A DNA stretch of 39,440 nt, taken from the NCBI GenBank assembly GCA_039832905.1, contig JBDOLX010000114.1, positions 1 to 39,440 of the forward strand. Reading direction: 5' to 3'. Position 1 is the stretch's first letter, and every line of letters begins with the position of its first letter. The stretch comes from Desulfurobacteriaceae bacterium (lineage in GTDB: Bacteria; Aquificota; Aquificia; Desulfurobacteriales; Desulfurobacteriaceae). Shown in pieces: positions 737-16,796 of the stretch. Below the pieces are notes generated by a model. It had not been told where the DNA came from. It worked only from the letters and a program-made list of their open reading frames with translations, and did no database searches. The translations under genes were made by a program, and so were the position numbers.

Positions 737-1237
737 CTAAACTCTTCTATATTGGTCCTTGTATTTGTCTAGTCCAGAAGAATAGCTACCTTTAGGACGT
801 CCAAGGGGTTTACCTTTTGCTTTTCTTCTCCTTAAAGCTTCTTTTGTTCTTTGACTAATTAATTTCCTTTCTATTTCTGCAGTTATAGAAAAAGCCATAG
901 CAAAGACTTTGGATTGCAAATCATCTTTTAAGACTTGCTTGTTCTTTACAACGTGAAGTTCCACACATTTTCTTAACAGAATGGAAAGGATTTCCATAAT
1001 CTCCAGCATAGATCTACCGAGTCTGGAGAGTTCGGTAATAATCAAAACATTTCCTTTCGAAAGCATTAAGAATAAGATCTCCTACCTTTCTAACCTTTCA
1101 ACTTTTCCTACCACTTATAGTTTCTTCTATAATCTCAATATTTCCTAGCTTTTTCTCATTAGCATATCTAAGAATTTCAAATCTTTGGTTTTCAGTCTCT
1201 TGTCTATCTGTAGAAACTCTTATGTAAGCACAGACAT
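737..1237 (-). pseudogene. Serine recombinase (resolvase/invertase family) pseudogene; degraded paralog of the intact gene at 27986-28594
   Basis: The C-terminal 109 codons (737-1066) are ~95% identical in protein to residues 60-170 of the 202-aa resolvase. The upstream N-terminal region still aligns at DNA level, but ATGTCTGTGCTTACATAAGAG replaces ATGTCTACTTACGCTTATATAAGAG (frameshift and stop), and the Trp codon of ...RKSW... is TGA. Confidence 0.8.
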
Positions 1238-1335
1238 TCTCAGAAAACCTTACATGTATTCTAAATTCAAAGTACTTTACCTGTCTTAACGAGAGTTTAT
1301 ACTAAATAAAGATAACTCATCAAAGGGAGGGATAA

Positions 1336-2043
1336 ATGAAATTAACTACAAAAAAATTAAAGAAAATATTCGACAAATGTTTCTCTGAAATCGGTAGAGA
1401 AAAGAATAAAGATGTTCAATGGTATTTAAAGAAACGTCCTAAACGCATCACAAAACAAAGTTTTTTTGAACAAGCCGTATGGGCAATATGGGTAGCAGGA
1501 AAAACTCGTCGCAGTGCAGAAACATTCCTTAGTCGTGCAGAAGAAAAAGGATTTGTTTGGGACTTCACCACTATTGCCTCTTGGAACAAAGCACGTTTAA
1601 CTAAATTCATGGAAAAATTACATGGACGTCCCGTTCCTAAGGGTGCTCGCAAAAGATGGGAAGCGATCTACCAAATTGCTAAGCTTCTCAATAATTATTC
1701 AAATGAAGCGGAATTCCGCAAAGAATTCTTTAACGGAAAAATTAAAAGTGCCGAACTAGATAAAAACGATGTCAAAAATTTAGTCAAACTAGGTCTTCCA
1801 TTTATAAGAAAAGCAAATGCCAGTTTTATTCTCAGAAATATGGGAGGCGAATTTATCAAGCATGATCGATGGGTAGAAGCATTTTTACGGCATTACAATT
1901 TATCTTTAGATGATTTAGAAAAAATGCTTCAGACTTTAAATATTCCATTAGGTCTCTTTGACATTGTTATATGGGCTTACTGTGAAAAATTTATAGGCGA
2001 TACTAAAAAACTTAATGAACACTTTAAGCAAGCTTTTGGATAA
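1336..2043 (+). CDS. Hypothetical protein, 235 aa; weak resemblance to HhH-type DNA-3-methyladenine glycosylase I (Tag-like) fold
   Basis: Clean ORF with GGAGGG RBS 7 nt upstream. Segments WAIWVAGKTRRSAETF and LPFIRKANASFILRNMGGEFIKHDRWV resemble Tag/HhH-GPD helix-hairpin-helix regions. Similarity is judged by eye only. Confidence 0.45.
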   Translation: MKLTTKKLKKIFDKCFSEIGREKNKDVQWYLKKRPKRITKQSFFEQAVWAIWVAGKTRRSAETFLSRAEEKGFVWDFTTIASWNKARLTKFMEKLHGRPVPKGARKRWEAIYQIAKLLNNYSNEAEFRKEFFNGKIKSAELDKNDVKNLVKLGLPFIRKANASFILRNMGGEFIKHDRWVEAFLRHYNLSLDDLEKMLQTLNIPLGLFDIVIWAYCEKFIGDTKKLNEHFKQAFG

Positions 2044-2111
2044 AAAGATTACTTATAGCATTCATAGGAAGTTATAAAGATCCAATTTTTGGTTTAGTTC
2101 AAGGAGGGACT

Positions 2112-2363
2112 ATGATAACCAAAAAAGACAAACTTTCTTATATTGAGGGTCAAATTAAAATGCAAGTATCTGACCTAGAGAAAGCATTTGAAATCATTAA
2201 GAAATATAAGGTTGATGTGAAAATTTCCATAAAAGAAAAAACTATCGAAATAGAATTAGGTTCCTTATCATCTACCCTCACAGTTAAAGATTTAATCTCA
2301 ATGCTTCAAGAACTAGAACCTCTCTGCGTACCTTTAGAACGACCAATAGTCGATATTTTTTAA
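2112..2363 (+). CDS. Small hypothetical protein (83 aa), paralog of the next gene
   Basis: AAGGAGGG RBS; shares YIEGxIKMQVSDLEKAFEIIKKY and LISMLQEL with the 2399-2704 product. Confidence 0.6.
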   Translation: MITKKDKLSYIEGQIKMQVSDLEKAFEIIKKYKVDVKISIKEKTIEIELGSLSSTLTVKDLISMLQELEPLCVPLERPIVDIF

Positions 2364-2398
2364 AATAGAAAATCAAGCTTAAAATAGAGGCACTATCA

Positions 2399-2704
2399 GT
2401 GATCAAATGGAAAAACGAAAAAAGAAAACCCACCTACATAGAAGGCTGGCTTAGAATACAGATATCTGATGTAGAAAAAGCATTAAGAACTATAGAAAAA
2501 TATAACCTTAAAGCTTACATCCACACTAAAAAGGGAAATACTTGCGAAATTGACCTAAACTCTACTTCCTTCTCAATTAAAGAATTAATTTCAATGCTTC
2601 AAGAACTTAGTTCTATTTGCATACCTTTAGACTCAATAGCTAACATATTAAAAGAATTAGAAGAAGATGATGATAAACCCGAAAATAACAGCTGGCTAAC
2701 CTAA
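2399..2704 (+). CDS. Small hypothetical protein (101 aa, GTG start), tandem paralog of 2112-2363 with acidic C-terminal tail
   Basis: Paralogy to the preceding ORF (YIEGWLRIQISDVEKALRTIEKY, LISMLQEL). The start codon is uncertain. Confidence 0.5.
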   Translation: MIKWKNEKRKPTYIEGWLRIQISDVEKALRTIEKYNLKAYIHTKKGNTCEIDLNSTSFSIKELISMLQELSSICIPLDSIANILKELEEDDDKPENNSWLT

Positions 2705-2748
2705 TCTATGAAACTTCAGAATTCCAAAAATAAATTTTGGAATAATCC

Positions 2749-2770
2749 ATTGTTTGAAAGCACGCACTTC
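2749..2770. repeat. Solitary copy (19/22 match) of the 22-bp oriV iteron (ATTGTTTGAAAGCACGCACTTC)
   Basis: Compare CTTGTTTGAAAGCACGCACTCT repeated 4x at 37406-37493. Lies 80 bp upstream of the methyltransferase ORF. Confidence 0.6.
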
Positions 2771-2847
2771 CTTTTCTGAAGAGAAGAACTTTTTGTAACT
2801 GGAAGTTTTGCGATAATTCCTTGAAAAGATGGTCGTAGGTTTTCCGT

Positions 2848-3471
2848 ATGATAAAAGAAATAAAACAGACAATAGAATTTTACAATCAGTATGCAGAGAA
2901 ACTGATAGAAAAATACGAAAAAGCAGAACCTAAGAAACTTCAAACTTTCATATTGAAATCGCTTCCTGGTAGAGAATCTAAAATTTTAGAAATAGGATTT
3001 GGATCAGGACGAGAACTAAAGTTTTTAATGGAGAATGGTTATCAAGTTTGGGGAGTAGATGGTGCAATAGAGTTTGTTAAGTTGGCAAAAAAGAGATTTC
3101 CTGAGATATCTAATCGTTTTTTCCACGCTTGTCTTCCAGATTTAAATCTTCCTTCTAACTATCTCAAGTTTTTTGATGTAATTATTTCTATCGCGGTTTT
3201 AATGCATATTCCAAAAAGGTTTTATAGACAAATTGCTAAGAACTTGGCTAAGTATCTAAAAGATGATGGTGTAGTAATTTTGAGTTATAGCTTAACTCCT
3301 CGAGAAGAAAGAGAAAGATTTTTTGAAAGGATGGATCCGAAAGATGTTTTGGAAGCCTTTTTAGCTGAAGGTTTTAGAAAAGAAGATGAACTAAAAACAT
3401 CGGATGCTTTCTTAGAAAGAAGGGATATCCTGTGGATTACAGAGGTATATAGACTTGAAAGAAAAGATTGA
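2848..3471 (+). CDS. Class I SAM-dependent methyltransferase (small-molecule type, not a DNA MTase)
   Basis: Motif I ILEIGFGSGRE; overall ~200-aa Rossmann MTase layout. No DPPY/NPPY or cytosine-C5 motifs. Confidence 0.7.
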   Translation: MIKEIKQTIEFYNQYAEKLIEKYEKAEPKKLQTFILKSLPGRESKILEIGFGSGRELKFLMENGYQVWGVDGAIEFVKLAKKRFPEISNRFFHACLPDLNLPSNYLKFFDVIISIAVLMHIPKRFYRQIAKNLAKYLKDDGVVILSYSLTPREERERFFERMDPKDVLEAFLAEGFRKEDELKTSDAFLERRDILWITEVYRLERKD

Positions 3472-4021
3472 CATTGAGTATCTGATAAAGGTTAACAAAG
3501 TCATAGAACGGGAAAGGAAAAGCAGTACTTATAAGCTTGCCCTTATGTAGATGTAAAATCTTCAACAGACCTATAGATGTTCATTTAATAGGTGATCTTG
3601 CTTGGTTTTGAACTTCTGGGACCGAATAACTTTCTTTAATCCTGTTTTTCTTGAGTGCGTGTTTTCAAACAAGCAAGGGCTTCTTTCACAAGGAGGGATT
3701 TCACTGTTTGTGATTTTTGATTGTTTTTGAGAACGGTAATAGAAATTAAAAAAGATATATTTGAATGTATTCTATATGTAAATAGCATATAAATAGTGTA
3801 TGCTTTATGTATACTTTCTACACTTAAGATAGATACTCAGTTTATTATGGAGAAACTTTGTTTATAGTTCCTAAAGAGAGAATAAGAATCTTAGGAAAAT
3901 CTATAAAAGAAACTTCAGAAAGGATTTCTAGCTGGATATTTGGAAAATAGAAAGAAAAAAAAGAACTTAGGAAAGAGAAATCCTCTCCAGAATGGTTCAG
4001 TTTATCTTGTTTGTGGAAAAT

Positions 4022-4234
4022 CTATAGTATTCCTTCTCGTTTAAGAAGCATTCTAACAAGAGTAGAGGCTGAAACTCCGTGTTCCTCAGCATACTGGTTA
4101 ACTTTTTCTTTTTCTTCTCTTGAAAGATATACAGCGAGATATGTTTCACTTCTTTTTCTTTTGCCTTTTTTAGAAGTGACATTCTTTTTTAAATCTGCTT
4201 CTTGAAGAAACTCATCCATTCTCTTGAAGCCCAT
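4022..4234 (-). CDS. Ribbon-helix-helix centromere-binding protein (ParG-like partner of ParA)
   Basis: 70 aa; basic N-terminal tail followed by RHH pattern TYLAVYLSREEKEKVNQYAEEHGVSASTLVRML. Lies directly downstream of parA, the type Ib gene order. Confidence 0.65.
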   Translation of the reverse strand: MGFKRMDEFLQEADLKKNVTSKKGKRKRSETYLAVYLSREEKEKVNQYAEEHGVSASTLVRMLLKREGIL

Positions 4235-4291
4235 GGTTACATCTCCTGTATGTTTATTATGTATTTATACTGTATGCAAAATATATGTATT

Positions 4292-4924
4292 TTACATGTC
4301 ACTTACAATTAGACTATCTATTTCTTTAATAAGCGTTTTTATTTCACGACACGCTTTAGAATTGGGGTTATACTCACAAACTGAAAGACCGTTTTGATAG
4401 GATCTTTTGTAATCTACGCGACGAAAAATTTTAGAGTTAAAGATTTTGAAAGTAGGAGAGGATTCTACAAACTTTTTTAACTCTATAATTTCCGAAAGGC
4501 TTCTTGCATCTGCATTGTTTATTAAAACATACACGTTTAAGTTAGGATTATACTTTCTTGCTTTTTCTACCACTTTCTCAAATTTTTGTAGACCAAAAAT
4601 TTCTATCTGACTAGGAGATACAGGAGTAATAACCATATCTGAAACAACTAGAGCAAATCTGTTAAGGTCATTATCGTAACCACCACTATCTATAAGAAGC
4701 TTCTCATTCTTCCTTTCCTGCAAAATCGTTTTTATATCCTCAAGAGTTTCAGGAGTAAATACTTGTAATAATTTTCCTTGTTCCCTTTCCCGAATTTTTG
4801 AGAAAAGATAACAAGAGTGCTGACTGTCCAGGTCTATAATCGGAACCTGCATTTCTACAGCGAGGTTGACTGCTATTGTTGACTTACCTACTCCTCCCTT
4901 TTGATGGGCTACGGTAATTATCAT
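4292..4924 (-). CDS. parA: ParA/ParF-type partition ATPase (small type Ib)
   Basis: Deviant Walker A KGGVGKST at residues 9-16; 210 aa. Followed by an RHH protein, with a repeat-rich upstream region at 5040-5320. Confidence 0.85.
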   Translation of the reverse strand: MIITVAHQKGGVGKSTIAVNLAVEMQVPIIDLDSQHSCYLFSKIREREQGKLLQVFTPETLEDIKTILQERKNEKLLIDSGGYDNDLNRFALVVSDMVITPVSPSQIEIFGLQKFEKVVEKARKYNPNLNVYVLINNADARSLSEIIELKKFVESSPTFKIFNSKIFRRVDYKRSYQNGLSVCEYNPNSKACREIKTLIKEIDSLIVSDM

Positions 4925-5084
4925 GGATAACTCCTGAATTTAAAATTTAGTCATTGCACTTACAAGTATACCACATATAATAAGCATGTTGTATAGATAC
5001 TTTTTATATGTGAAATACATATATAAAACATATAAGTTTCGAACAACTATTTTCTTTCTCCTTAAAACAACGGTAAATGGGAAT

Positions 5085-5260
5085 CGAAACTTTTGCCGGC
5101 AGAAGTTTTGTTGATTGGCAAATTGAAATAGTCTGTTTTAAAGGTGAGAATAGGAATGAAAGATAAAGTAGAAAGGGAAAAATTGAGGCTTGATAGTTGA
5201 TGTTTGAGGACTGGTAGTTGATGTTTGAAGGTTGAGAATTGGAGGTTGAATAGGGAATTA
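5085..5260. promoter_or_regulatory. Candidate centromere/promoter region of parA
   Basis: Hairpin AACTTTTGCCGGCAGAAGTT (5088-5107) followed by TTGTTGATTGGCAAATTG. Direct repeats TAGTTGATGTTTGAGG / TAGTTGATGTTTGAAGG and GGTTGA(G/A) units at 5190-5260. The hairpin+TGATTGGCA unit also occurs at 119-170 and 36592-36650. Confidence 0.45.
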
Positions 5261-5337
5261 AACTGTAAAGTTTCCGTAGAAGGAATTTGTTTGAAGGCAT
5301 ACATTAGCAGAATCTTAACCATAAGTTGAGGGGAGTT

Positions 5338-7382
5338 ATGGCTTTAAAGGATTTAGAGTTACCTTTTTGTATGAATACCTCAGAGAATGATTTAGTAAAG
5401 GAATTCTTTATTCCCTTATTAAAAAACTCTATCGAATATAAGAGGGGAGTGGGTTTTTTCTCTTCTGGATGGTTTAAAGTGGTGTCAGAGGGAATAATCA
5501 ATCTTGTTCTAAATGGTGGAAGAATTAGACTTATAACAAGTCCTATTCTTTCAAAAGAAGACTATGAAGCCTTAATAAAGGGAACACAAGCAGCACGGGA
5601 TAGAAAGCTTTATGAAGCTATTTTGTTTTCCATAAAAGATTTAAAAGAATCTCTTGAAGAAGATACTTTATCAGCTATTGCTTGGATGATTGCAGACGGA
5701 ATAATGGAGATAAAGTTGGCAGTTCCAAGAAATAATTTAACAGGAGATTTTCATGATAAATTCGGTATTTTCATCGACAGCGAAGGAAACAAAGTAGCTT
5801 TTTCCGGTTCACCAAATGAAAGTATACAAGGTATGCATAATTACGAATCTATAAAAATTTTCCCTTCATGGAGAGATCTTACATCAAAAGAAATTGCTGA
5901 AGCTGAGGATTGTAGATTTGAATTACTATGGAACGATAAAGATCCAAATTTAAAAGTTTTTTCAATCCCAGAGGCAGCAAGAAAGGAGATTCTTAAGTTA
6001 AGGACAAAAAAAAGACCTTACAAAAAAGAAGTAATCTTAAGTGCATTTAAAGAAAATAACTTACCTGTTCTAAGAAATTATCAAAAAGAAGCGGTTAGTA
6101 AGTGGGTTAGTAATAACTTTCAAGGCATATTTGAGATGGCAACAGGAACGGGAAAAACTTTTACTTCCTTGTTTGCAATAAATGAATTTATTAAACATTC
6201 AAAGCGAAACTTAATAGTAATTATAGTTCCTTTTGTTCACTTAATAGATCAGTGGGAGAAAAACGTTAAGTTACTGTTTAAAGATCCTATTAAATGCTGC
6301 GGTTCGAAAAACAAATGGTTATCAGTGTTGAGAGACAAAATTTTGATACAAAATAAGGGGGATATAGAAAACTTAGTCGTTATTTCTACCATACAAACAG
6401 CTATTAAAGATTACTTTCTTGAGGTTATTCGTAAAGCTTCTGGTAATAGTCTAATCGTTATTGATGAAGTTCACTATGCTGGTGCACCTGAATTTTCAAA
6501 AATACTTGATCCATTCTTTAAAGCTCGTATCGGCTTGTCTGCTACTCCGGTTAGAATGTGGGATGAAATTGGAACTGAGAAATTGGAGGAATATTTTGGT
6601 GGTGTTGTTTATCGCTTTCCTTTAGGAAGGGCTATTCAGGAAGGTTTTCTAACTCCTTACGAGTATCATCCTATTTTAGTTGAACTTACAGAGGAAGAGT
6701 TTGAAGAATATCAACTGTATTCAGAAAAAATAGCCAAGTTGCTTGCCCGCGAAAGTTTATCTGAAGAAGAAAAGAGTAAGAGGTTAGAACATATTCTCAT
6801 TAGTAGAGCTAATCTTTTAAATAGGGCAAAAAATAAGTTAAAGGCTTTAGAGAAATTAATAGTTCAGAATAGACTCATTAAATACAGTATTTTTTATTGT
6901 GATCCTTTACAAATTGAAGAAGTTTCTAGTATACTTAGAAAATATAATATAGTTATTTCTAAATTTACAGCTAAAGAAACAAAAGAACAGCTAAAGAAAC
7001 AAAAGAAGAAAGAAAGCTAATCTTAAGTAAATTTGAGGCAGGAGAAATAGAAGCTTTGGTTGCAATGAAGTGTTTAGATGAGGGAGTGGATGTTCCTGCT
7101 ACACAATATGCATATTTCCTGTCTAGTAGCACGAACTCACGACAGTTTATTCAACGAAGGGGAAGAATCTTACGCAAATTTAAGGGAAAAGAAAAAGCAG
7201 TAATATTTGATTTTATCACCGTTCCTCCTAAAGACCGCGAAATTTCACCAGTTACCCGTAAAATCTTATCTAGAGAGTTCAAGAGATTTAGAGAATTTGC
7301 TTCATATGCAGTTAATAAGTATAGGGCTAAAAAGGAAATACTTGATGTTGCAAAGAGATATCACCTTTTAGATGAGGTTTAA
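5338..7382 (+). pseudogene. PLD-family nuclease / SF2 (DEAD/DEAH-like) helicase fusion, interrupted by a 20-bp tandem duplication (6968-7007) that shifts frame. ORF fragments 5338-7020 and 7056-7382
   Basis: N-terminus has an HxK...GSxN-like motif (HDKFGIFIDSEGNKVAFSGSPNES). Helicase motifs I MATGTGKT, II DEVH, III SATP in the first ORF; motif V LDEGVDVP and motif VI QRRGRILR in the second ORF. Removing one copy of CAGCTAAAGAAACAAAAGAA restores an uninterrupted ...KETKEERKLILSKFEAGEIEALVAMKCLDEGVDVP... reading. Likely ATG start at 5338 after a GAGGGGAG RBS; the ORF track starts at TTG 5326. Confidence 0.8.
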
Positions 7383-7546
7383 AATGAACTTTGAAAGAAT
7401 AAAAAAAGAAATAGAGACAAAAGATTTAATTGTGATAAAGGCTTTGCTTGAAATTTTAGAGGTTGAAGAAAAAAAGATAGGGCTACAGAGACCCAAAGGA
7501 ATAAAAGACGATATAAGAAAAATTTTTGATCGCTGGGGAAAGGAAT

Positions 7547-9493
7547 ATGATCCTGAAGAAAGTTAAGGTTAAGAACTTCAGACAATATTATGGTGAACAA
7601 GAACTAGAGTTCTCTACGGATCCAGAAAAGAATATTACCTTAATCTATGGAAAAAATGGTGCAGGAAAAACTTCTCTTTTTATGGGTATAAACTAGGTTC
7701 TCTATGGTTCGTCAGAGGTAAAAATAGAAGGTAAAAAAGTTAATAAGAAGGCAATAGATGAAGCAAAAGAAAAGGGTGAAGAGTTTGTAGAATCAGAAGT
7801 TGTTCTTACTTTTTCTCATGAAGGGATTGATTATCAAATAAAGCGAAAAGTGGTGTACGATGTAAAAGAGGATATTGAACATCCGGAAGAAGTGCAGATG
7901 GAGAAGATTTTTCCAAAAGTTGATGAAATATCAAATTCGTTGATAGCCTTAAATCCTATATTACCCCCAAATGTTCGAAGTTACTTTTTCTTTGACGGGG
8001 AAAAGATAGATGAATTTTCTAAACCTGATCACGACAAGGAAGTAAAGGAAGCTGTATACAAGGTTCTTGGTATTACTTTGATAGAACGGGCGATATCTCA
8101 TGTAAGAGATATTTTAAGAGAATATAACAAGGAACTGGCAAAAAAATCCTCGGGTAGATTGAGGGAGTTAAGAGAAAAATACAATGATGTTTTACAAGAA
8201 AAAGAAAATTTAGAAAACGAATTGAAGGAAGCAAAAGAAGAAAGGGAAGCACTGGAAGCTAACATAAGGGAGGTGAAGAGTAGGCTTAGGGAAATAGAAG
8301 AAATCCAACACTTGATAGAAAGGAGAGATGCTTTAGAAAGTAAATTAACAAGTATGGAGTTGGAACTTTCCAAAATCTATTCAAAACTTAGGAAAGTAAT
8401 CAATAAAAGTTTCCTTTTAATAGGTAGTATTTCTATAGAAGAGGCTTATGAAATACTAAGTAAGGAAATAAAAAATTCTGCTGATATTCCTAAGAAGTTT
8501 TTATCAAAGTTAATAGAGAAAATCTTAGAAGAAAAGGAATGTATATGTGGTTCAGCATTAACTCCGGAAATGAGAAGAAAACTTATAATGAAAAAAGCGG
8601 AAATTGCCCAAATGGCGAAAAGTGATAAGACAGAAGAAATAGTAAGTTCCATTATTGCAGAAATTTCAGGATTGAAGAGTAAAAAGGAAACTATACATAG
8701 TGAATTAATTTCTCTTTTTAGTGAGAAAATGAGATTAATGGATAAGATTCAGAAAACCTATGAGGCTTTAGATGAAGTGGATCAGCAGTTAAGTAAAAAT
8801 GAGTTGGAAGATGTAAGAAAACTTCAAGGTTTACTTGAAGAATATACAAAAGATTTGGGAAGATATACTCAAAAGATAGAAAGCATAGAGGAAAAAATAA
8901 AGGAAAAAAATGAAGAAATATTGTTCCTACAGAAGGAGATTAGTAAGGAAGAAAAGAAAGAGAGAGAAACTAATGAATTAACTAGGAAGAAGAATCTAGC
9001 GCAGGCAGTTTTACATCAACTGGAGACTCTCTATGAAAAGTTGTCTTTCAACTTAAGAAAAGAGATAGAAAGTGAAGCTACAAAGATATTTAAGAAGTTG
9101 ATTAGGAAAAAGGAATTCTTTAAACGTATAGAACTTTCTGAAGACTATCTCCTTAAGCTTATAGATGCCTTTGAAGATAGAGAATCTAAAAGAGAACTTT
9201 CTGCTGGAGAAAGACAAGTATTAAGTTTAGCTTTCATATTAGCATTGGCAAAAGTATCAAAGAAAGAAGCTCCTGTAGTTATGGATACTCCTTTTGGTAG
9301 ATTGGATCCAGAGCATAGAAGTAATATTCTTCAAGAGATTCCCTATTTAACACGTCAGCTTGTTCTTTTTGTAACTCCTTCAGAAATGACAGAGTCTCTT
9401 AAATTGCTTATACAAGATAAAGTAGGAAAGGAGTATGAACTTGATTTTAATGAACAGGAAAAATATACAAAAATTGTTCCTTTAGAGAGGTAG
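7547..9493 (+). pseudogene. DndD-like SMC/ABC-family ATPase (648 codons) with a single in-frame TAG at 7694-7696. The annotated 547-aa ORF (7850-9493) lacks the Walker A segment
   Basis: ATG 7547 preceded by an AAAGGA RBS. MILKKVKVKNFRQYYGEQELEFSTDPEKNITLIYGKNGAGKTSLFMGIN-stop-VLYGSSE... gives a Walker A GKNGAGKTS. Continuous frame into 7850-9493. Long coiled-coil middle. C-terminus LSAGERQVLSLAFILALAKV...VMDTPFGRLDPEHR resembles the DndD signature (DTPLGRLD). Confidence 0.75.
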
Positions 9494-9497
9494 ATTT

Positions 9498-9902
9498 ATG
9501 ATTTTGGAAATTTCTTTAAGGGACAAAATTTATATAGATGAAGACACACATGATATATACAAGAGGCTTAAGGAGGATTTAAAACTCTTTGATACTATGA
9601 AAGAACTATTCTTAGTAGCGGCAGCTGTAGGATATTATAACAATAAAAGAGTACCTTTAAAAAGGAGAAAAGATATTTTCTCTAAAAGTATTTTCGATAA
9701 GGAAACTGATATTCCATTTATTTATGTATTAGCATTAGCGGGAGAAAAAAGTAAAGAAGTTTTTCAAAAAGATGTTTTAAGTGTAGTTGAAGAATATGCT
9801 AACGGTGGAATTAGAATTTTGGCTGAAAAATTTGAAAATGTGAGAAAAATGGAAGAAGCTATAGACGAATTTAGTGCTTATTTAGTGGAGAAGTTTGGGT
9901 AG
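9498..9902 (+). CDS. Hypothetical 134-aa protein between the ATPase and the DUF262 nuclease
   Basis: AGAGAGG RBS; 4-nt gap from the preceding gene and overlaps the next gene. No recognisable motif. Confidence 0.55.
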   Translation: MILEISLRDKIYIDEDTHDIYKRLKEDLKLFDTMKELFLVAAAVGYYNNKRVPLKRRKDIFSKSIFDKETDIPFIYVLALAGEKSKEVFQKDVLSVVEEYANGGIRILAEKFENVRKMEEAIDEFSAYLVEKFG

Positions 9903-12027
9903 ATATTTGTTCGGAGGAGCGGAAGTGGGAGTAGAATATAAAAAGTATGAGTTAGAGAAATTCTTTGATCTTATAGATAGTGGAAAGATAGTTCTTCCAG
10001 AATTTCAAAGAGGATATGTATGGTCAATAGGAAAACAAAAAAGATTTCTTGCTAGTATTTTAGTAGGATTGCCAGTTGGAAGTACTCTTCATATTGAAGG
10101 TTCAGCTGGTGACTTTGTTGCAAGAGCTATTTGTGAACGACGAGAAGTGAACCCGAAAGAAGAATGTGAATATCTTTTAGATGGTCAGCAGAGGATTTCT
10201 ACTCTTTATAATATTTTTCAAGATATTTATGAAAAAGAAGAAACAAGGGATTGGAAAAAAGTCTTAAATTCTCTCTTTGATAAGCTTAGATATAGATGGT
10301 TTATTAAATTATCAAAGGAAGATGATATCTTTGGACTTAAAACATTAAAATTTGATCCAAGTAAGCTTCTTACTCTTGAACCTAGAAGAGTGGAAGAGTA
10401 TATAGAGGTGAAGAAAATAGAAGATATAAAGGAAGAAAAAATACAGAAAAAAAATGCTTGGTACCATCCTGCATTTATTCCTATAAAAGATGGACGAAAA
10501 CTTACAGGTCGGTTATCTGAATTGGAAAAGGCAAGATTGGCTGCAGAGGAATATTTAGTACCTTTGTTTGAAATTAGAAAGAAAGAGTTAGGATTGCATA
10601 GGCAAGTTCTTAAGCAAATTGCTAAAAGAAGAGTAGAAGAATTACAAGCAGAAGTAGCTGATGGAAAACTTAAGTTGAGAGATATATTGTCAGATATTCA
10701 TCCAGATATAGATAACTTGGACGAAAGAACTATTAATGAAGTATGGACAGAGTTGCAAATTAGTTGGGTAGAGGATGTTTCAAGATATCTAGAAGGATTA
10801 CTAAAAAGAGAAATTCCTGTTGTACTTTTACACAAAAATGAAATAGGTAGAGCTGCTGTTATTTTTGAGGAATTTAATACTGGAGGAACTAAGTTAGAAG
10901 ATTTCGATTTGTTTGTTGCTAAAGCAGCTAGAGTAGATTCAGAGAGGTCACTTGTAAGAAGGATAATGAATGTTCTAGATAGATCTTTTGATACTACTCA
11001 TTTAGAAAATGAGGCTATAAATTGGAAAGCAAATTTATTTACTCCAACAAAAGAGTTAAGTAAGAAATTTAAAAAGATATTTTTGAATTCCTTATCGTTA
11101 ATAGTATTTTCTCTGGAAAAAGGAGAAGAGCTTTCGAAAGAAATGACTCTTAGTGGTAAGATTCTTTCTTTACAACCTGAAGATGTAGTTAAATATACTG
11201 AGAGAGTAACAGAAGCTATTGTGAAAGCTTTTGCGTTTCTACAGTTGAAGTGTGGGCATGTTAATGAAAAATCTATTAGTTATGAATATATGATTTTACC
11301 AATAGTGTATGTGTTCTATTGTAAAGATGACATATGGTACGATAATAGCATTCTGAATAAGATAGGTGCTTGGTTTTGGGGATCTTTGTTTGCTGGTATG
11401 TATAAAGAAAGACAGGATGATCAGTTAATTAAAGATATAAAAATGCTTAAAGCTTGGTTAGTAGATGGAGAAGAAGATTCAGAAGAATTTAGGCGTTGGA
11501 AAACTGTTGTAACAGATAAAATATTTAATAGGGAAGGTTATTCAGACTGGGAGACACTGTTAAATAAAAATCCGGAAACAGAAGCACCTAAAGCTATTAA
11601 GAAAGCTATACTGAACTATATTCTTAGTAAGAAACCTGTAGATTTTTTACCGGATCAAGAGATTAATCTTACTGCGTATAAGTGTGCTAATGGTAATTTT
11701 AAGTTGGAAGAGCATCACATTATACCACTAGCAAGTGCAACTAAAATAGGAGAGTCTACAAAGAAGATAAGAAAAGAGAAAAAGCATATTTTGAATAGTC
11801 CCCTCAATCTTACATATATCTCTGATTCAGCAAATTTAAGAATCAGAGATAAAAGAATAGATGAGTACTTTAACGAGTTGGGACACTTTAAAATAGGTAC
11901 CCACATTTTTCCAACGGATATAAGGAAGCCTCAGAATGACGAAGAAAGAAAAGAAATTCTTAAGAAACGTTTGGAACTTTTGAAACAGAGTGTGACCTCT
12001 GAAATCAATATGTTACTAAATTCCTAA
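9895..12027 (+). CDS. DUF262 (ParB/Srx-like NTPase) + DUF1524 (His-Me finger nuclease) protein, GmrSD/SspE-like
   Basis: N-terminus has LPEFQRGYVW and LLDGQQRISTL. C-terminus has EEHHIIPLASA...NSPLNLTYISDSAN typical of DUF1524. The track start is TTG 9895; a GTG at 9925 preceded by GGAGGA is the more likely start. 3' end overlaps the dndE 3' end by 23 nt (convergent). Confidence 0.8.
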   Translation: MGRYLFGGAEVGVEYKKYELEKFFDLIDSGKIVLPEFQRGYVWSIGKQKRFLASILVGLPVGSTLHIEGSAGDFVARAICERREVNPKEECEYLLDGQQRISTLYNIFQDIYEKEETRDWKKVLNSLFDKLRYRWFIKLSKEDDIFGLKTLKFDPSKLLTLEPRRVEEYIEVKKIEDIKEEKIQKKNAWYHPAFIPIKDGRKLTGRLSELEKARLAAEEYLVPLFEIRKKELGLHRQVLKQIAKRRVEELQAEVADGKLKLRDILSDIHPDIDNLDERTINEVWTELQISWVEDVSRYLEGLLKREIPVVLLHKNEIGRAAVIFEEFNTGGTKLEDFDLFVAKAARVDSERSLVRRIMNVLDRSFDTTHLENEAINWKANLFTPTKELSKKFKKIFLNSLSLIVFSLEKGEELSKEMTLSGKILSLQPEDVVKYTERVTEAIVKAFAFLQLKCGHVNEKSISYEYMILPIVYVFYCKDDIWYDNSILNKIGAWFWGSLFAGMYKERQDDQLIKDIKMLKAWLVDGEEDSEEFRRWKTVVTDKIFNREGYSDWETLLNKNPETEAPKAIKKAILNYILSKKPVDFLPDQEINLTAYKCANGNFKLEEHHIIPLASATKIGESTKKIRKEKKHILNSPLNLTYISDSANLRIRDKRIDEYFNELGHFKIGTHIFPTDIRKPQNDEERKEILKKRLELLKQSVTSEINMLLNS

Positions 12028-12373
12028 AGTCTTCAAGCTTTTTAACCCTATTATAGAGGAGATCTGCTCCTCTATTTATATGTGCTCTGAAAAGCTCAAG
12101 TAGAAGTTTTTCATTTTGCAAATCAAAGCCATCTTTGTAAGCCCTTTGCTTAAAAAGACAAATCAAGATAGTGTCTAAATCACCAAGTAAAACATGCCTC
12201 ATTAACTCTTGACCATCTTGTTTATACCAATTCGGATCTGGTAATGTGGGGTCTTTCAAAGATAGAACCAAACCAAATCTACAGAGAATATTAGGAGTAA
12301 GACCTGTTCTTCCTTTTAGTATAGAAAGTTTTTGGCTAACTTTCTTGTCTAGGATAATCCTGTTAAATTTCAT
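12005..12373 (-). CDS. dndE: DNA sulfur modification protein DndE
   Basis: 122 aa, immediately downstream of dndD with a GGAGAGAG RBS. N-terminus MKFNRIILDKK...LKGRTGLTPNILCRFGLVLSL resembles the DndE family. Confidence 0.65.
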   Translation of the reverse strand: MKFNRIILDKKVSQKLSILKGRTGLTPNILCRFGLVLSLKDPTLPDPNWYKQDGQELMRHVLLGDLDTILICLFKQRAYKDGFDLQNEKLLLELFRAHINRGADLLYNRVKKLEDFRNLVTY

Positions 12374-12392
12374 TTTCTCTCTCCTAAAGCTA

Positions 12393-14327
12393 CTAATTCC
12401 AGAAGTATCCTTTTTGCACTTTTGTACACATACAATCTTCGTCGTAGACCAATAGATAAGAGTGTGATATATGTTTCTTCAATATGTTGAAAAGTTCTTT
12501 GTCCACTTCTACATTAGTAGACAAAATAATCACTTGATGGCTAATTTGTGGGAAATAATTATTAGCAAGATTTTCTCTGTGTTCGTTATCCAATCTACCT
12601 AAAGGAGTGTCTATAATCACTGGTAACTTTTTACCCGAGGTTTTTGCAAGTCCCCATAAAAACGATATTGCAAATATTTGTCTTTCTCCTGAAGAGAGTC
12701 TATCAATAGGAATTTTTCTATTATTCAAGTCAAAAAGAGTAATTTCAAAAGTTTCAGGGTCTATATGAAGATCTCTTATAAAATTCTCTTTTCTTTTAAG
12801 CTTATAAAGGGCATCTAGTATTTCTTTTTCCAAGATTTTTACCTTTCTTTTTATAAATTCGCTTCTGAACCTGTTAAGAACCTTCTGTGACTTTTCTATT
12901 AGGGAAATAACTCTTTTCTTCTTTGTCTTTTGTTTAATGAAGTTTTCTAATTTTTCTATCTCCTTTTCTATCTTTCTCTTCTCTCTTTCTAACTTATTGA
13001 CTTCTTCTTCTAACTGTTTCTTTTTAATTTCTGCTTCTATCTTTTCTTGGTCTAGCTTAGATATTTTTTCTAAATAGGGTCTGATAACCTCTTCGTCTGG
13101 AACATTTTGTAAACTGCTCTCGACTTCTAGTAACTCTTCTTCTAAGGTTTCTAATTTACGAAATAGTTCTTTAGCTTTATGTAAAGTGTTGGTTTTTAGG
13201 TTCTGTACTGCTATTTCTAGTAGTCTGTTTTCTCTTTCCGAAAGATCGTGAATGATGTCTATTTTAATTTCTTTTTTTACAAAGAATAGTCTTTTTATAT
13301 TTTCTAGCGTATCTTTATCTAAAGGAATGGATTTCAAAATACTTTCAAGTTCTTTGTACTTATTTTTTAGTATCTCTTCCTCAAACTTTATTTTTTTTAT
13401 CTCTTTTTCCATTTCTAGCTGGGCTAGAAGTTCTTCTAATAGATTTATACCTAGTGCAAGAGGTAAATCTTTGGAAGAAATTTCTCGTATCTCATTCTTA
13501 ACTTCTTCTATTTCGTTTTCCAGGAATTCTTTTTTGGATAGGTTTCTTTCATAATTTCTAAATAACTCTCCACCTTTTTCAATAAACTTTCTTTCTGCTT
13601 TCTTTAGTTCTTTTTCTAAATTGATTCTCTTTATTTCTAAACTAGCAATTTCCTGTTTTTTCTTTCCTAACTCTTCTTCTATTAGTTCTCTTTCTTCTTC
13701 CAGTTTGTTGAGTTCCTTTTGAATTTCTTCAGAGAAATCCTCTTGATGAAGATATCTTTTTCTTAATATTTCTAAACTATAGTTTAGAGTATCTACTACT
13801 GTAACTCCTAAAAGAGACTTGACGTCATTCACAAACTCTACTTCTGAAAAGTCTTCTGCAAGTTTTTCTATTTTCTCTCCATCAAAGAAGAAAAAGTTAA
13901 CCAAACTTGGAGGAATAATATCAGAAATAAATTCTTGCCATTGGTTTTTAGGAATTTCCTTATAAACTTCATTGTTTTTGTAAAGAAGAAATTCTTCTTT
14001 AAAACTTTTATTAAGATCCCATTTCCTAATTACTTTGTAAGTATCTTGAGATTCTAAGGAAAAATAAACAAACTCAAGTGATATTTGGGCAAGGTTCTCT
14101 CCTTTATGTATAAGTTTTCGAATAAACTCTTCATATTGTTTCTTTGTGTATCCGTAAATATTGTTACCGTATAAACATAACTTCACAGACTCAAGTAATG
14201 TAGTCTTTCCTGTTCCGTTTTTTCCACCAAACAAAATAATGTTTTTTCCTTTTCTTGGCTTTAAATCAAAAACATTTCTTCCTTTGTAAAGACCTATATT
14301 TTCTAAGGTTAAAGAAGTTAAAATCAT
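12393..14327 (-). CDS. dndD: DNA sulfur modification protein DndD (SMC-like ABC ATPase)
   Basis: Walker A GGKNGTGKTT; long coiled-coil. C-terminal signature LSSGERQIFAISFLWGLAKTSGKKLPVIIDTPLGRLDNEHRENLANNYFP characteristic of DndD. 4-nt overlap with dndC. Confidence 0.85.
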   Translation of the reverse strand: MILTSLTLENIGLYKGRNVFDLKPRKGKNIILFGGKNGTGKTTLLESVKLCLYGNNIYGYTKKQYEEFIRKLIHKGENLAQISLEFVYFSLESQDTYKVIRKWDLNKSFKEEFLLYKNNEVYKEIPKNQWQEFISDIIPPSLVNFFFFDGEKIEKLAEDFSEVEFVNDVKSLLGVTVVDTLNYSLEILRKRYLHQEDFSEEIQKELNKLEEERELIEEELGKKKQEIASLEIKRINLEKELKKAERKFIEKGGELFRNYERNLSKKEFLENEIEEVKNEIREISSKDLPLALGINLLEELLAQLEMEKEIKKIKFEEEILKNKYKELESILKSIPLDKDTLENIKRLFFVKKEIKIDIIHDLSERENRLLEIAVQNLKTNTLHKAKELFRKLETLEEELLEVESSLQNVPDEEVIRPYLEKISKLDQEKIEAEIKKKQLEEEVNKLEREKRKIEKEIEKLENFIKQKTKKKRVISLIEKSQKVLNRFRSEFIKRKVKILEKEILDALYKLKRKENFIRDLHIDPETFEITLFDLNNRKIPIDRLSSGERQIFAISFLWGLAKTSGKKLPVIIDTPLGRLDNEHRENLANNYFPQISHQVIILSTNVEVDKELFNILKKHISHSYLLVYDEDCMCTKVQKGYFWN

Positions 14328-15760
14328 TCTTTGTTAACCTCTCTTAAGATTTCTTCTTCTGTTCTCCATTCTTCGTTAAGAATTTTTTCAAGTTTCTTGA
14401 TAAGGGAGGTTTTTCTTGAGGAAAAAGCATTATACTGGCAAGTGTTAAGTAACTTGATTATTAGTCTTGGGTCTACATTTTCTTCTGTTGCCAATGACTC
14501 TATTAATTTCCTATCTTCCGCTGAAAAGACTCCAATATCTTCCTTTGGAATTTCTAACTCTTTTTCATAAACTTCTTTATAGATTTTTGCGACGCTATCT
14601 TCCCAATCACCTTCTTCCAGTTTCCAAATTCTTCTAATTTCTAAAAGTTCTTCAAGAGATATTAATTTAATTTCTTCTTCATAGGGATTATTCTCATTTA
14701 TCTTCTTCTCAGTTTCTAAAAGTTCTTTTAGGAAAATTTTTCTATATTCAAACTTGTAAGGTCCTCTCCCTAATTTCTTAGTTCCATTTCCATAGCTATT
14801 TCTTAAAAAGTATATACTTCCATCTCTTCTTTTGTAATCACGATAGATATGCTTATTTTCTGGATCTTGAGTTTTAACAAGCAATTCCCTAAATTCTTGA
14901 AGAGGGCGCAGCCAATTTTCCCCACTTTCTATAAGAGAACTAAGAGATTTTTCATTCTTAACAACAGTACAGACCCAACAACCGAATCTACTGTTACCTC
15001 CTGTCTGTTCATCAGCTGCAACTAAATTTCCAACTATAATAGGTGGTTCTCCCGCATTTGCTTGTTTATACATTTCAAATAACTCTTGATTGTTTCCTCC
15101 CCATGGAGACTCAAAATTAAGTAAATAATTCCAAACATCTTCAACTGTCCAGTCTTCTATAGGCGTGTAAACTAGAGCTCCAGGAAGAGTTGAATGTCTA
15201 GATAATCTACTATTTTCTATTTTGTGTTCATTTATCGTTTTCTCTCTATTGAGGCTTTCTGCCTTTCTAACTCCTAAAACTACAATAACTTCTCCATATT
15301 TACTTACTGTTTCAATTACAAATCTATTTGAAGGTTCTATCTTTAGTCTATCTGTGCACCATCTAAATTCTTTAGTGGGGGCAGGGTAACCTCTTCCAAT
15401 CAAATTAACCCAAAAAGTATCTGAAATTCGGGGACATACTTTTACAGCTTGAATAGGTAATCCTTTTTCTTTAGCTGCTTTATTAATAAGGGTAAGATTT
15501 TTATCTACGTAGTTTATGACTTTAGGGATTTCTATTAGTGTATCGGAAGAGAGTACGTATATAGGCTTTCTTAACTTATTTCTCGGCATTCTTTCTAAAG
15601 CTTCCCAAACCAATTGTAATGTTGCTGTAGAATCTTTTCCTCCGCTGTACCCTATTATCCACGGATAGCTATTTGAGAAATAAATATTCTCGATCTCTTT
15701 GTAAAGAGTATCTAAACTTTTTCCACCAAATAGAAAGGATTTTTTAGATTTATGTGACAT
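14324..15760 (-). CDS. dndC: DNA phosphorothioation protein DndC (PAPS-reductase-like ATP pyrophosphatase)
   Basis: PP-loop SGGKDS near the N-terminus; cysteine cluster RFGCWVCT; 478 aa. Operon position between dndB and dndD. Confidence 0.85.
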   Translation of the reverse strand: MSHKSKKSFLFGGKSLDTLYKEIENIYFSNSYPWIIGYSGGKDSTATLQLVWEALERMPRNKLRKPIYVLSSDTLIEIPKVINYVDKNLTLINKAAKEKGLPIQAVKVCPRISDTFWVNLIGRGYPAPTKEFRWCTDRLKIEPSNRFVIETVSKYGEVIVVLGVRKAESLNREKTINEHKIENSRLSRHSTLPGALVYTPIEDWTVEDVWNYLLNFESPWGGNNQELFEMYKQANAGEPPIIVGNLVAADEQTGGNSRFGCWVCTVVKNEKSLSSLIESGENWLRPLQEFRELLVKTQDPENKHIYRDYKRRDGSIYFLRNSYGNGTKKLGRGPYKFEYRKIFLKELLETEKKINENNPYEEEIKLISLEELLEIRRIWKLEEGDWEDSVAKIYKEVYEKELEIPKEDIGVFSAEDRKLIESLATEENVDPRLIIKLLNTCQYNAFSSRKTSLIKKLEKILNEEWRTEEEILREVNKE

Positions 15761-16796
15761 ATTTTTCTCCCAATATCTTCTTTAGAATGAACTCTGCTGT
15801 AGCTTTTATGTTTACGTTAGCTTTACTTAATCTACCTTTGTTTAGTGCTATTCCTTCCCACTCAGGATTATTTCTATGCCAGTCTATATCTTTCAGCCTA
15901 GAAAGAATTTCTCGTAGGTTTAATTGCTTTTTGATAATTACGCGACCTACTATAGCGATAGCGTTCAGAAAAAGTCCATGAGAATGGATGTATTCTTGTC
16001 TTGCCTTATAAGCAGCTAGTTCGCCTTTTTTTATCTTTTCCCACTCAGGAATGTTCCTACCTACTTCTTCCCAGAATTCAAAAGAAAGTATTCTGTCTTC
16101 TTCGCTTATTTCCACTTTGTTGCCTTTCTTATCTAGAAATTCTTTGGTAGCATGATAAATGCTACTTAGTGTAAAAAGTTTATTTGATCTATTTGATATA
16201 GAGCTTCTTTCATACTCTACTAAGTCTTTGAAATAGTAAACGTTTTCTGCAAGATATCTAGTTAACTCCGCCATCTGATCTCTATAGTCATATAGGATAC
16301 TAATGGATGGCGTTGGTTTTACGGAATACCTGTTCAAGTCAGTAAATATTTGCTGACTTCGTTCTAGTCCTAAATCAATAAAAACAACCATTGAAATTGT
16401 TTCGTAACCTAGTTCCGGATTTTCTTGAAGGGCTTGTTTTATAGCTTCAATCCTGTGTTGTCCGTCATTTATTATGATTCTTGAGTTTTTATCTATTTTA
16501 AGTTTTCCTATTTGATAGTTTTCTTCACTAATGGCTTCAAATTCCACTTTCCCATCAACGGAAATAGTGATTGAAGAAAAAACGTAAGTGTATGGGTTAT
16601 CCAAAATGTACTTTTTTATTTCTGGAATCCTTCTTTTATTGAGAATTCTCTGAGCCCTTAGTTTAGGTGGAAGTAAAGGAATGTTTATCTCTTTAAATAT
16701 CTCTGGAATTAGTTTTAATGGACACATTACAGTGTAAAATTCTTTTCCTGCTTGAATTCCTCTAACAGCAGGAAAGGTATAAAAGGAATTTCTCAT
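15750..16796 (-). CDS. dndB: DndB (DGQHR-domain regulator of the dnd operon)
   Basis: INDGQHRIEAI (DGQHR motif). N-terminus FPAVRGIQAGKEFYTVMCPL resembles the DndB family. Overlaps the dndC start. Confidence 0.8.
   Translation of the reverse strand: MRNSFYTFPAVRGIQAGKEFYTVMCPLKLIPEIFKEINIPLLPPKLRAQRILNKRRIPEIKKYILDNPYTYVFSSITISVDGKVEFEAISEENYQIGKLKIDKNSRIIINDGQHRIEAIKQALQENPELGYETISMVVFIDLGLERSQQIFTDLNRYSVKPTPSISILYDYRDQMAELTRYLAENVYYFKDLVEYERSSISNRSNKLFTLSSIYHATKEFLDKKGNKVEISEEDRILSFEFWEEVGRNIPEWEKIKKGELAAYKARQEYIHSHGLFLNAIAIVGRVIIKKQLNLREILSRLKDIDWHRNNPEWEGIALNKGRLSKANVNIKATAEFILKKILGEKYVT

Follow-up and report, generated by a model that had tools for sequence, protein, structure and literature searches.

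Which restriction genes partner the phosphorothioate (PT) modification operon dndBCDE at this locus, and do they amount to a new kind of system? The window analysed here, 39,440 nucleotides of a Desulfurobacteriaceae contig, carries a co-directional cluster on the + strand, from 5326 or 5338 (depending on the start codon taken) to 12027, that converges on dndE-dndD-dndC-dndB on the minus strand (12005–16796). A first-pass annotation described it as four genes converging on dndBCDE: a PLD-nuclease/helicase, a DndD-like ATPase, a 134-aa protein and a DUF262/DUF1524 nuclease. The co-directional arrangement and all four protein types are indeed present, but the PLD/helicase and DndD-like reading frames are each split, and a 60-aa gene had been missed. 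The last + strand gene ends, as that annotation noted, 23 nt inside dndE (12005–12027), an overlap that is exactly the same in the relative L086. Every kind of component at the locus is already known, and we find no new four-protein system. The probable overall picture is that the dndBCDE operon is accompanied by two restriction modules, each of a known kind: a decaying Pbe arm, and an SspE/DndI-like nuclease that serves as the functional partner of dndBCDE.

A PbeABCD Operon with Two Lesions

The region 5338–9902 (+ strand) is an ordinary, already described PbeABCD operon, with the canonical gene set by profile, motif, size and order, broken by two mutations. Its roles are assigned here following PMC6459918 and PMC10853773. 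The 5′ part of pbeA (5338–7020, + strand; open from a TTG at 5326) encodes an HKD/PLD nuclease and the N-terminal half of an SF2 helicase/translocase. It matches the PADLOC PbeA profile PDLC02707 at 594 bits (residues 7–558 on profile positions 2–564 of 672) and Pfam ResIII and DEAD, and its translation contains the HKD-like motif HDKFGIFID...GSPNES. The 3′ part (7008–7382, + strand), in a different frame, supplies the C-terminal domain of the helicase, including motif VI (QRRGRILR); it matches PADLOC PbeA at 144.7 bits (positions 577–671 of 672), TIGR04095 (dnd_restrict_1) over positions 343–451 of 451, and Pfam Helicase_C.

Exact self-comparison places a perfect 20-bp tandem duplication, two copies of CAGCTAAAGAAACAAAAGAA, at 6968–7007 (+ strand), and this splits the gene into ORFs 5326–7020 and 7056–7382. 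Past the frameshift the 5′ part closes with the out-of-frame tail ...KETKEQLKKQKKKES and a stop; the NCBI product for the same contig, P0121, stops at the identical tail. Removing one copy in silico yields a 2037-nt open frame whose product matches the PADLOC Pbe profile end to end (773.5 bits). The repaired junction, KFTAKETKEERKLILSKFEAGEIEALVAMKCLDEGVDVP, is collinear with 27 tblastn matches in related loci, with gaps of a few residues at most, and with Persephonella atlantica P0122, the closest intact homologue (68% identity). The duplication thus throws pbeA out of frame ahead of the helicase C-terminal domain.

The pbeB candidate (7384–7566, + strand, 60 aa) is assigned by position and size: it begins 2 nt beyond the end of pbeA and shares its last 20 nt with the start of pbeC, much like the 66-aa PbeB of H. 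jeotgali (PMC6459918). An HMM search against PADLOC, Pfam and NCBIfam returned no match for it. The same slot in 27 related loci yielded ORFs of 49–88 aa, most of which have in common the loose pattern L..I...E..N(L/I)(K/R)....D..M...I.K.I.

Next in order is pbeC (7547–9493, + strand), a CxC-type zinc-hook, coiled-coil ABC ATPase and DndD paralogue identified by PADLOC and its motifs. An in-frame TAG at 7694–7696 (+ strand) parts a 49-codon Walker A piece (7547–7693) from the remainder of the gene. Among 35 tblastn alignments over this position, a few of them to DndD or unrelated ABC ATPases, 28 have W here, 4 have F, 2 have L and 1 has Y; the codon is most simply explained as a change from TGG (Trp) to TAG, and would truncate the protein right past the Walker A motif. 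With the stop read as Trp, the product scores 412 bits against PADLOC PbeC (residues 1–635 on 1–650 of 651), compared with 286 bits for the best DndD model. It has Walker A (GKNGAGKT), signature (LSAGERQ) and Walker B (VVMDTPFGRLD) motifs, and a CICG (CxC) motif at residue 332 of 648 that 28 of 30 alignments retain, the remaining two being DndD cross-matches. The operon ends with pbeD (9498–9902, + strand, 134 aa), which by synteny and TIGR04062 is dnd_assoc_4; its score (E = 9.4e-17, 61.5 bits) falls under the 74.25 cut-off, and it is 49% identical to a gene in the same position in L089 that carries Pfam PF27807 (DNA_S_mod_dnd_assoc_4). The literature describes dnd_assoc_4 (PbeD) as the counterpart of DndE in the CxC system; BLASTP found no similarity between PbeD and the window's DndE.

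Two of the four genes, pbeA and pbeC, thus appear to be inactivated, a point the first-pass annotation overlooked. [quoted passage not shown] As the contig is metagenome-assembled, either lesion could instead be a minority allele or a mistake in the assembly or its consensus.

The same genes in the same order were described in DndCDEA-PbeABCD (Xiong et al. 2019, Nat Commun, PMC6459918), where an HKD-SF2 helicase (PbeA), a ~60-aa PbeB, a CxC ABC ATPase (PbeC) and a ~135–150-aa PbeD lie beside dnd; PbeABCD has since been re-annotated as a system centred on the CxC ABC ATPase and DndE (Rakesh et al. 2024, NAR, PMC10853773). The window differs in its frameshifted pbeA and prematurely stopped pbeC, in converging on dndE where the known operon comes after the dnd genes, in an extra DUF262/HNH gene past pbeD, and in having no dndA nearby. 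The proposal that the composition matches no known partner does not hold up, since PbeABCD accounts for four of the five genes (PADLOC, TIGR04095, TIGR04062); what stands is the broader claim of a PT-associated restriction arm beside dndBCDE.

An Intact DUF262/HNH Gene beside dndEDCB

The fifth gene (9895–12027, + strand; NCBI starts it at GTG 9925, giving 700 aa) encodes an intact 710-aa protein of the GmrSD superfamily, a DUF262 (ParB-like NTPase) domain joined to a DUF1524-type HNH domain. It aligns full length to more than 100 homologues, and the motifs DGQQR and HH..N..N..N are invariant. The SspE-like DUF262 plus HNH architecture proposed earlier is borne out, and in both architecture and context the protein is SspE/DndI-like. 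Its clade escapes the existing SspE and DndI models: only weak N-terminal matches were found to the SspE and DndI (PADLOC Orf5) profiles. Against SspE of SspABCD-SspE (Xiong 2020; Gao 2022, PMC9646914; PDB 6JIV, 7DRS, 7DRI) no full-length match reaches significance (PADLOC E = 0.0015 for residues 33–122; PDB matches E 0.1 or worse), and within the window the accompanying modification is of the Dnd type (double-strand PT), not the Ssp type. Where SspE and DndI have the PT-sensing Tyr, it has Phe. The DndI system, IscS-DndBCDE-DndI (Tang et al. 2024, NAR, PMC11662687; PDB 9JFL), likewise sets a DUF262 plus DUF1524 HNH protein beside dndBCDE and needs no local dndA, IscS serving instead; the 710-aa protein has no sequence match to 9JFL.

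The nearest solved structure is BrxU (PDB 7P9K). This and other GmrSD-type type IV enzymes give the best structure and sequence-profile match and share the DUF262 NTPase plus HNH layout, yet identity to BrxU is only 14%; BrxU acts on base-modified phage DNA and has no tie to PT genes, whereas the clade in the window consistently adjoins Dnd or Ssp genes.

On the minus strand, dndE (12005–12373), dndD (12393–14327), dndC (14324–15760) and dndB (15750–16796) give near full-length PADLOC matches (123.7, 596, 611 and 456 bits, respectively) and read as an intact PT modification module; no dndA was found within the window.

Linkage and Decay in Related Loci

Among 80 species-representative loci, PbeA/PbeC lie within 10 kb of the DUF262 clade gene in 33 and are adjacent and co-directional in 31; where the flanks extend a full 10 kb, in 39 loci, PbeA/PbeC are within that distance in 20. 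A PAPS-reductase (SspD/BrxP/DndC-like) gene is found within 10 kb in about half of the 80. All relatives of at least 52% identity whose neighbourhoods were inspected (L001, L006, L086/L087, L089, L090) adjoin dnd genes, and in more distant ones, where examined, the gene follows SspB, SspC and SspA in the place of SspE. Occurrence apart from dnd, which the first-pass annotation named as counting against its reading, is largely borne out: such genes neighbour SspB/SspC/SspA and a BrxP/SspD-like gene, without dnd, in for example Selenomonas ruminis (L029) and Caldicellulosiruptor kronotskyensis (L004), and Xiong 2019 (PMC6459918) reports dndCD within 10 kb of just 42% of PbeAC pairs.

In L086, an 83% identical relative, pbeC and pbeD survive only as deletion remnants. 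In L006, an archaeal MAG contig, a 7-kb block 77% identical in nucleotides to 9904–16852, the DUF262 gene plus dndEDCB, begins exactly at the DUF262 gene, with a resolvase beside it in place of pbe; the L006 orthologue is itself split, on a contig covered only 1.66x. L090, too, lacks pbe while carrying the DUF262 gene beside dndBCDE; conversely, a PbeA of 61% identity belongs to a plain dndCDE-pbeABCD locus from which the DUF262 gene is absent. Either module can therefore occur without the other, and the DUF262 gene travels with dndBCDE as a single cassette.

Weighing the Alternatives

An unlikely competitor is that all five genes work together as a unit, the DUF262 protein reading PT while PbeA–D translocate on unmarked DNA and block or cut it; the lesions would then be errors of assembly, variants between strains or an off-state that can be reversed. 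A perfect tandem duplication can revert by slippage, the pbe frames are otherwise clean and full-length scoring, the DUF262 gene starts before pbeD has ended, and the frequent co-directional linkage just described includes L089 (54% identity), where pbeC-pbeD-DUF262 also converges on dndEDCB. Against this stand two independent inactivating lesions within one operon, large deletions in the same genes of L086, the occurrence of either module alone, and the H. jeotgali dndCDEA-pbeABCD fragment, which by itself protected a heterologous host (PMC6459918). Somewhat less probable again is a PT-independent type IV enzyme, GmrSD/BrxU-like and directed at modified-cytosine phage DNA, that simply lies in one defence island together with dnd and pbe. 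Against it, the gene keeps company with PT machinery in particular and not just with defence islands, as seen in the close relatives abutting dndBCDE, the PAPS-reductase neighbours, the SspE slot and the conserved 23-nt overlap. Very improbable is the undescribed four-protein Ssp/Dnd hybrid, apart from DndFGH, Pbe and SspE, that the first-pass annotation envisaged. The DUF262/HNH gene does lie outside published PbeABCD and is missed by the SspE and DndI models, but Pbe profile matches already largely refute the idea: three of the four named proteins are recognised as PbeA, PbeC and dnd_assoc_4 and only the 710-aa protein falls short, with its weak N-terminal SspE match; PbeB fills the remaining slot, two of the named genes are broken, and the coupling of an SspE-like reader to Dnd modification has already been published, for DndI (PMC11662687).

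The SspE/DndI-like nuclease is probably the working restriction partner of dndBCDE, although its structural closeness to BrxU, a PT-independent type IV enzyme, its weak SspE and DndI profile matches, Phe substitution and split L006 orthologue count against this. By analogy with SspE and DndI, DndBCDE and a housekeeping cysteine desulfurase would put PT on host DNA; the N-terminal domain of the 710-aa enzyme may sense it by way of a hydrophobic pocket surrounding the invariant PxFQR motif; reading would alter the NTPase cycle, so that the enzyme is released or restrained on self DNA; and the HNH domain would then nick invading DNA that lacks PT.

A Second DUF262/DUF1524 Gene

On the far side of dndBCDE lies another, unrelated DUF262/DUF1524 gene (19359–21704, minus strand, 781 aa), which could instead be the real partner of dndBCDE. 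It is possibly another PT-linked nuclease, closer to DndI and SspE than the 710-aa protein, to which its similarity is N-terminal only. It matches Pfam GmrSD_N (107.7 bits), PADLOC Orf5 (72.8 bits) and SspE (54.9 bits), and, in the PDB, DndI 9JFL (E = 5e-9) and SspE 6JIV (E = 5e-4); its translation shows the motifs PHYQR, DGQQR and EH...N...N.

Gene Layout and Identity of the pbe Genes

The contig, complete at 39,440 bp, belongs to an NCBI metagenome-assembled genome (MAG) labelled Desulfurobacteriaceae bacterium (protein records P0001 and P0121). A tight run of forward-strand ORFs (5326-12027) converges on dndE-dndD-dndC-dndB on the reverse strand (12005-16796), whose products each match their PADLOC profile (DndE, DndD, DndC and DndB) over nearly the full length. 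The first-pass annotation had described a four-gene cluster here; the run and its convergence are real, as is the 23-nt convergent overlap that it reported between the final forward ORF and dndE, but our ORF map differs from it in having split ORFs and one additional small ORF. The PLD/helicase gene is divided between two forward ORFs (5326-7020 and 7056-7382), a 60-aa ORF (7384-7566, forward) lies between it and the ATPase, and the DndD-like ATPase occupies one forward frame (7547-7693 and then on to 9493) with a TAG at 7694-7696 between its two parts. Promoter-like sites in 4900-12500 were fewer than in shuffled sequence (promoter and terminator scan), and an Rfam scan of the whole window returned no RNA families. 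Within the 3' end of dndE, 26 nt beyond the stop codon of the DUF262 gene, a hairpin with a 9-bp stem is followed by a T-rich tract (12053-12075, forward strand) and possibly terminates the convergent transcripts.

Both PLD/helicase pieces fall on a single PADLOC PbeA profile (positions 2-564 and 577-671 of 672), and both match the NCBIfam model TIGR04095, "DNA phosphorothioation system restriction enzyme" (304.5 and 140.7 bits; cut-off 600). Once the frame is repaired, the protein matches PADLOC PDLC02707 at 773.5 bits (residues 3-660 against profile positions 2-671 of 672). Pfam matches to ResIII, DEAD and Helicase_C, together with an HxK...D...GSxN motif in the translation, give the PbeA architecture of an HKD/PLD nuclease domain fused to an SF2 helicase. 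No profile exists for PbeB, a small protein that evolves rapidly (about 50-66 aa; 66 aa in H. jeotgali, PMC6459918); the 60-aa ORF sits at the PbeB place between pbeA and pbeC, where 27 related loci have ORFs of 49-88 aa with a loose helical pattern common to most.

Both ATPase pieces are assigned to PbeC profiles by PADLOC, and with a Trp restored at the stop the protein matches PbeC from end to end at 412 bits, versus 286 for the best DndD model. It is a coiled-coil ABC ATPase, distinct from DndD, with a CxC zinc hook at its apex (CICG at residue 332 of 648). The CxC is kept in 28 of 30 alignments, the two exceptions being DndD cross-hits, and this hook is the defining feature of the CxC ABC ATPases, which Rakesh et al. 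equated with PbeC (PMC10853773). The 134-aa product of the next gene matches NCBIfam TIGR04062 (dnd_assoc_4; E = 9.4e-17, 61.5 bits, under the 74.25 cut-off) and is 49% identical to the product of a gene carrying PF27807 in a related locus (L089), which places it in PbeD. Its proposed standing as a DndE cognate is unconfirmed at the sequence level, because BLASTP found no similarity between it and the window's DndE.

The profile matches, the CxC motif, and the size and position of PbeB therefore identify 5338-9902 as pbeABCD in canonical order. Membership in DndFGH (DptFGH) was considered and rejected, as PADLOC and NCBIfam gave no DndF, DndG or DndH match among the 5326-12027 proteins. Exact look-up found no record of this PbeD sequence in public assemblies, nor anything for the Persephonella PbeA (P0122), and a metagenome scan for close PbeA relatives returned a single locus, 36% identical.

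Lesions in pbeA and pbeC

As written, not all four pbe genes are intact. An exact 20-bp tandem duplication in pbeA (CAGCTAAAGAAACAAAAGAA twice, 6968-7007) shifts the frame, and deletion of one copy of the 20-mer restores a single 2037-nt frame. The repaired junction (...KFTAKETKEERKLILSKFEAGEIEALVAMKCLDEGVDVP...) is collinear with 27 tblastn matches in related loci; the closest intact PbeA, from Persephonella atlantica (68% identity), reads KFTAQESNEERKLILDKF at the junction and aligns with the repaired form. NCBI's product for this contig terminates in an out-of-frame tail (...KEQLKKQKKKES), and PbeA as written stops short of motif VI and the rest of the helicase C-terminal domain. The in-frame TAG in pbeC follows codon 49, in GKTSLFMGIN*VLYG, and cuts the protein just past the Walker A motif. 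The residue aligned to it is Trp in 28 of 35 alignments; one TGG-to-TAG change therefore accounts for the stop.

Pbe-type defence blocks the replication of viral DNA in a phosphorothioate-dependent way. Any single pbe deletion impaired protection in an experimental system (Xiong 2019, PMC6459918). Because pbeA and pbeC are both broken and each pbe gene is needed for protection, we infer that the Pbe module, if the assembly is correct, would be non-functional in vivo. Recoding of TAG and programmed frameshifting were both considered and set aside; neither had a supporting signal, and a close relative carries outright deletions in the same genes.

A Nuclease of SspE/DndI Architecture outside Both Profile Families

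The last forward gene of the run (9895-12027) encodes a 710-aa protein with two features of SspE: an N-terminal DUF262 domain (Pfam GmrSD_N, 81.5 bits) bearing the DGQQR NTPase motif, and a C-terminal DUF1524 HNH domain. The motif (D96-G97-Q98-Q99-R100) is invariant in 44 homologues. The position aligned to the phosphorothioate (PT)-sensing Tyr of the N-terminal hydrophobic pocket (Y30 in SspE, Y25 in DndI) is an invariant Phe in this clade, aromatic but not Tyr, so that the 710-aa protein reads PEFQR where SspE reads PPYQR. Profile searches do not place the protein in SspE, the best PADLOC match (E = 0.0015, 15 bits) covering residues 33-122 only; PADLOC SspE models find weak matches in only 10 of the 44 clade members, and the PDB SspE match has E = 0.72 with a single sequence and 0.11 with a profile. 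Assignment to DndI likewise fails: the protein has no sequence match to PDB 9JFL, and it and its relatives have only weak N-terminal matches to PADLOC Orf5, which we take to be the DndI family. The fold of its DUF262 and DUF1524 domains is closest to BrxU/GmrSD. On these matches the protein is a GmrSD-superfamily member of SspE/DndI architecture that belongs by profile to neither family, and its gene lies beside dndBCDE, a DndI-like context. Its sequence cluster has one member, from one contig.

A second DUF262/DUF1524 gene (19359-21704, reverse strand) lies on the far side of dndBCDE. Its 781-aa product carries PHYQR, DGQQR and EH...N...N motifs and matches DndI (PDB 9JFL, E = 5e-9), PADLOC Orf5 (72.8 bits) and SspE (54.9 bits). 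The two proteins are unrelated outside their N-terminal motifs.

Neighborhoods of the Same Genes in Other Loci

Relatives of 52-83% identity (loci L001, L006, L086/L087, L089 and L090) all adjoin dnd genes, either a full dndBCDE or, on short contigs, dndE-dndD. The DUF262 gene and dndEDCB are kept as a block in three of them (L006, L086, L089). In L006, a contig from an archaeal (Methanocaldococcaceae) MAG, positions 511-7495 are collinear with 9904-16852 of the window (the DUF262 gene plus dndEDCB) at 77% nucleotide identity over 7 kb; the homology begins exactly at the DUF262 gene, and upstream lies a resolvase gene with no pbe. A block this similar in a bacterial and an archaeal MAG points either to transfer between the domains among vent thermophiles or to a binning error. 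The L006 contig has a coverage of just 1.66x, and its DUF262 gene is split (532-1482, 1604-2668).

L086, a hydrothermal-vent contig, encodes a DUF262 protein 83% identical to the 710-aa protein. Of the pbe genes, the sequence upstream of it (1-760) retains no more than the 3' end of pbeC fused to pbeD, and this remnant carries deletions and a premature stop. In L089 (54% identity), pbeC-pbeD-DUF262 converges on dndEDCB, and a 61%-identical PbeA occurs in a plain dndCDE-pbeABCD locus without a DUF262 gene (L093). An insertion sequence with a DDE transposase lies between pbeA and pbeB in L093 (12043-12885), and pbeC of Caldicellulosiruptor kronotskyensis (L004, 7383-9418) is called as two genes of 255 and 419 aa; both are possible pbe damage. 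These cases hint at frequent loss or silencing of Pbe modules. Damage in the window and independently in L086 (perhaps also in L004 and L093) fits the weak co-evolution reported between Pbe and Dnd.

Among 80 species-representative genomes carrying the 710-aa clade, PbeA or PbeC is found within 10 kb in 33, and 31 of these 33 loci are co-directional, as PbeABCD-DUF262 or DUF262-PbeABCD. A strong DndC is present in only two of the 80 genomes of these distant relatives, and a weak PAPS-reductase match in about half. The order in Selenomonas ruminis (L029) is BrxP/SspD-like gene, SspB, SspC, SspA, DUF262 gene, PbeA, PbeB, PbeC, PbeD; in C. kronotskyensis it is DUF4007 (SspB-type), a 1194-aa gene, cysteine desulfurase, PbeA-D, DUF262 gene. 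From these neighborhoods, the 710-aa clade thus holds the SspE slot beside Ssp or Dnd PT writers, and Pbe is a frequent yet dispensable third module.

Proposed Function

The working restriction partner of dndBCDE is most probably the intact DUF262/HNH enzyme, and the Pbe module is most likely a decaying second arm. Because there is no dndA within the window, the cysteine desulfurase with which DndBCDE would write PT is presumably encoded outside it. SspE (PMC9646914) and DndI (PMC11662687) serve as models for the 710-aa enzyme: PT sensing by its N-terminal domain is expected to modulate NTP hydrolysis, and its HNH domain to nick unmarked DNA.

Other readings deserve consideration. A less likely account takes the lesions as artefacts or as a reversible off-state, in which case the five genes would cooperate. 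Another possibility is that the 710-aa enzyme is a type IV enzyme of the BrxU kind with no connection to PT, a suggestion that fits its closest structure but not the consistent linkage of its clade to PT writers; the Dnd and Ssp genes near members of the clade disfavor the type IV activity, cleavage of DNA with modified cytosines regardless of host PT. As to the partner itself, the 781-aa protein, on the strength of its PHYQR and DGQQR motifs and its match to DndI, is a candidate for the true DndI-type partner of dndBCDE, in place of the 710-aa enzyme that we prefer.

The first-pass annotation had proposed a new hybrid restriction system. Profiles and motifs instead reveal PbeABCD, already described (PMC6459918, PMC10853773), beside a PT-linked nuclease of a kind already published (SspE/DndI-like), DndI being a GmrSD enzyme of this type already coupled to Dnd modification (PMC11662687). 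All of its components being of kinds already described, the locus opens no new category. Among the papers searched, none links a DUF262/DUF1524 gene to PbeABCD, and the recurrent layout of writer, DUF262 gene and Pbe and the position of this clade outside the SspE and DndI profiles are therefore modest additions. With the Pbe arm read as decaying, the locus would be a natural case of a PT-modification module keeping one restriction partner while another decays. Since current defence profiles label this sizeable DUF262/HNH clade as neither SspE nor DndI, annotators would miss the partner. It is conceivable, and in our judgment rather improbable, that the clade is a distinct, unnamed PT-linked family of GmrSD type, repeatedly wedged between PT writer (Ssp or Dnd) and PbeABCD, and the PT reader that Pbe lacks. 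If so, many bacterial Pbe systems would really be five-gene systems, and the missing link for PT sensing by Pbe would be supplied.

The Remainder of the Contig

Three serine-recombinase (resolvase) genes or fragments are present (737-1235, reverse; 26052-26444 and 27986-28594, forward), and the copy at the 5' end of the contig seems to be truncated or to carry a frameshift. In L006 a resolvase of 70% identity (1-200) flanks the DUF262 and dnd block, suggesting that a resolvase accompanies the block when it moves. Given these resolvases and genes for a ParA-like ATPase (4292-4924, reverse), an FtsZ/tubulin-family protein (21724-22740, reverse), a PIN-domain toxin (24079-24501, reverse) and a HipA_C kinase (34982-35767, forward), the contig as a whole (39 kb) resembles a plasmid or mobile island more than core chromosome. 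A 235-aa ORF (1336-2043, forward) has a weak PADLOC "OGG" match (E = 3e-6) and no Pfam match, and adjoins a SAM-methyltransferase gene (2848-3471). Two proteins are of eukaryote-like type: a 597-aa WD40-repeat protein (17120-18913, reverse), encoded between dndB and the second DUF262 gene, and a 445-aa ankyrin-repeat protein (31124-32461, forward).
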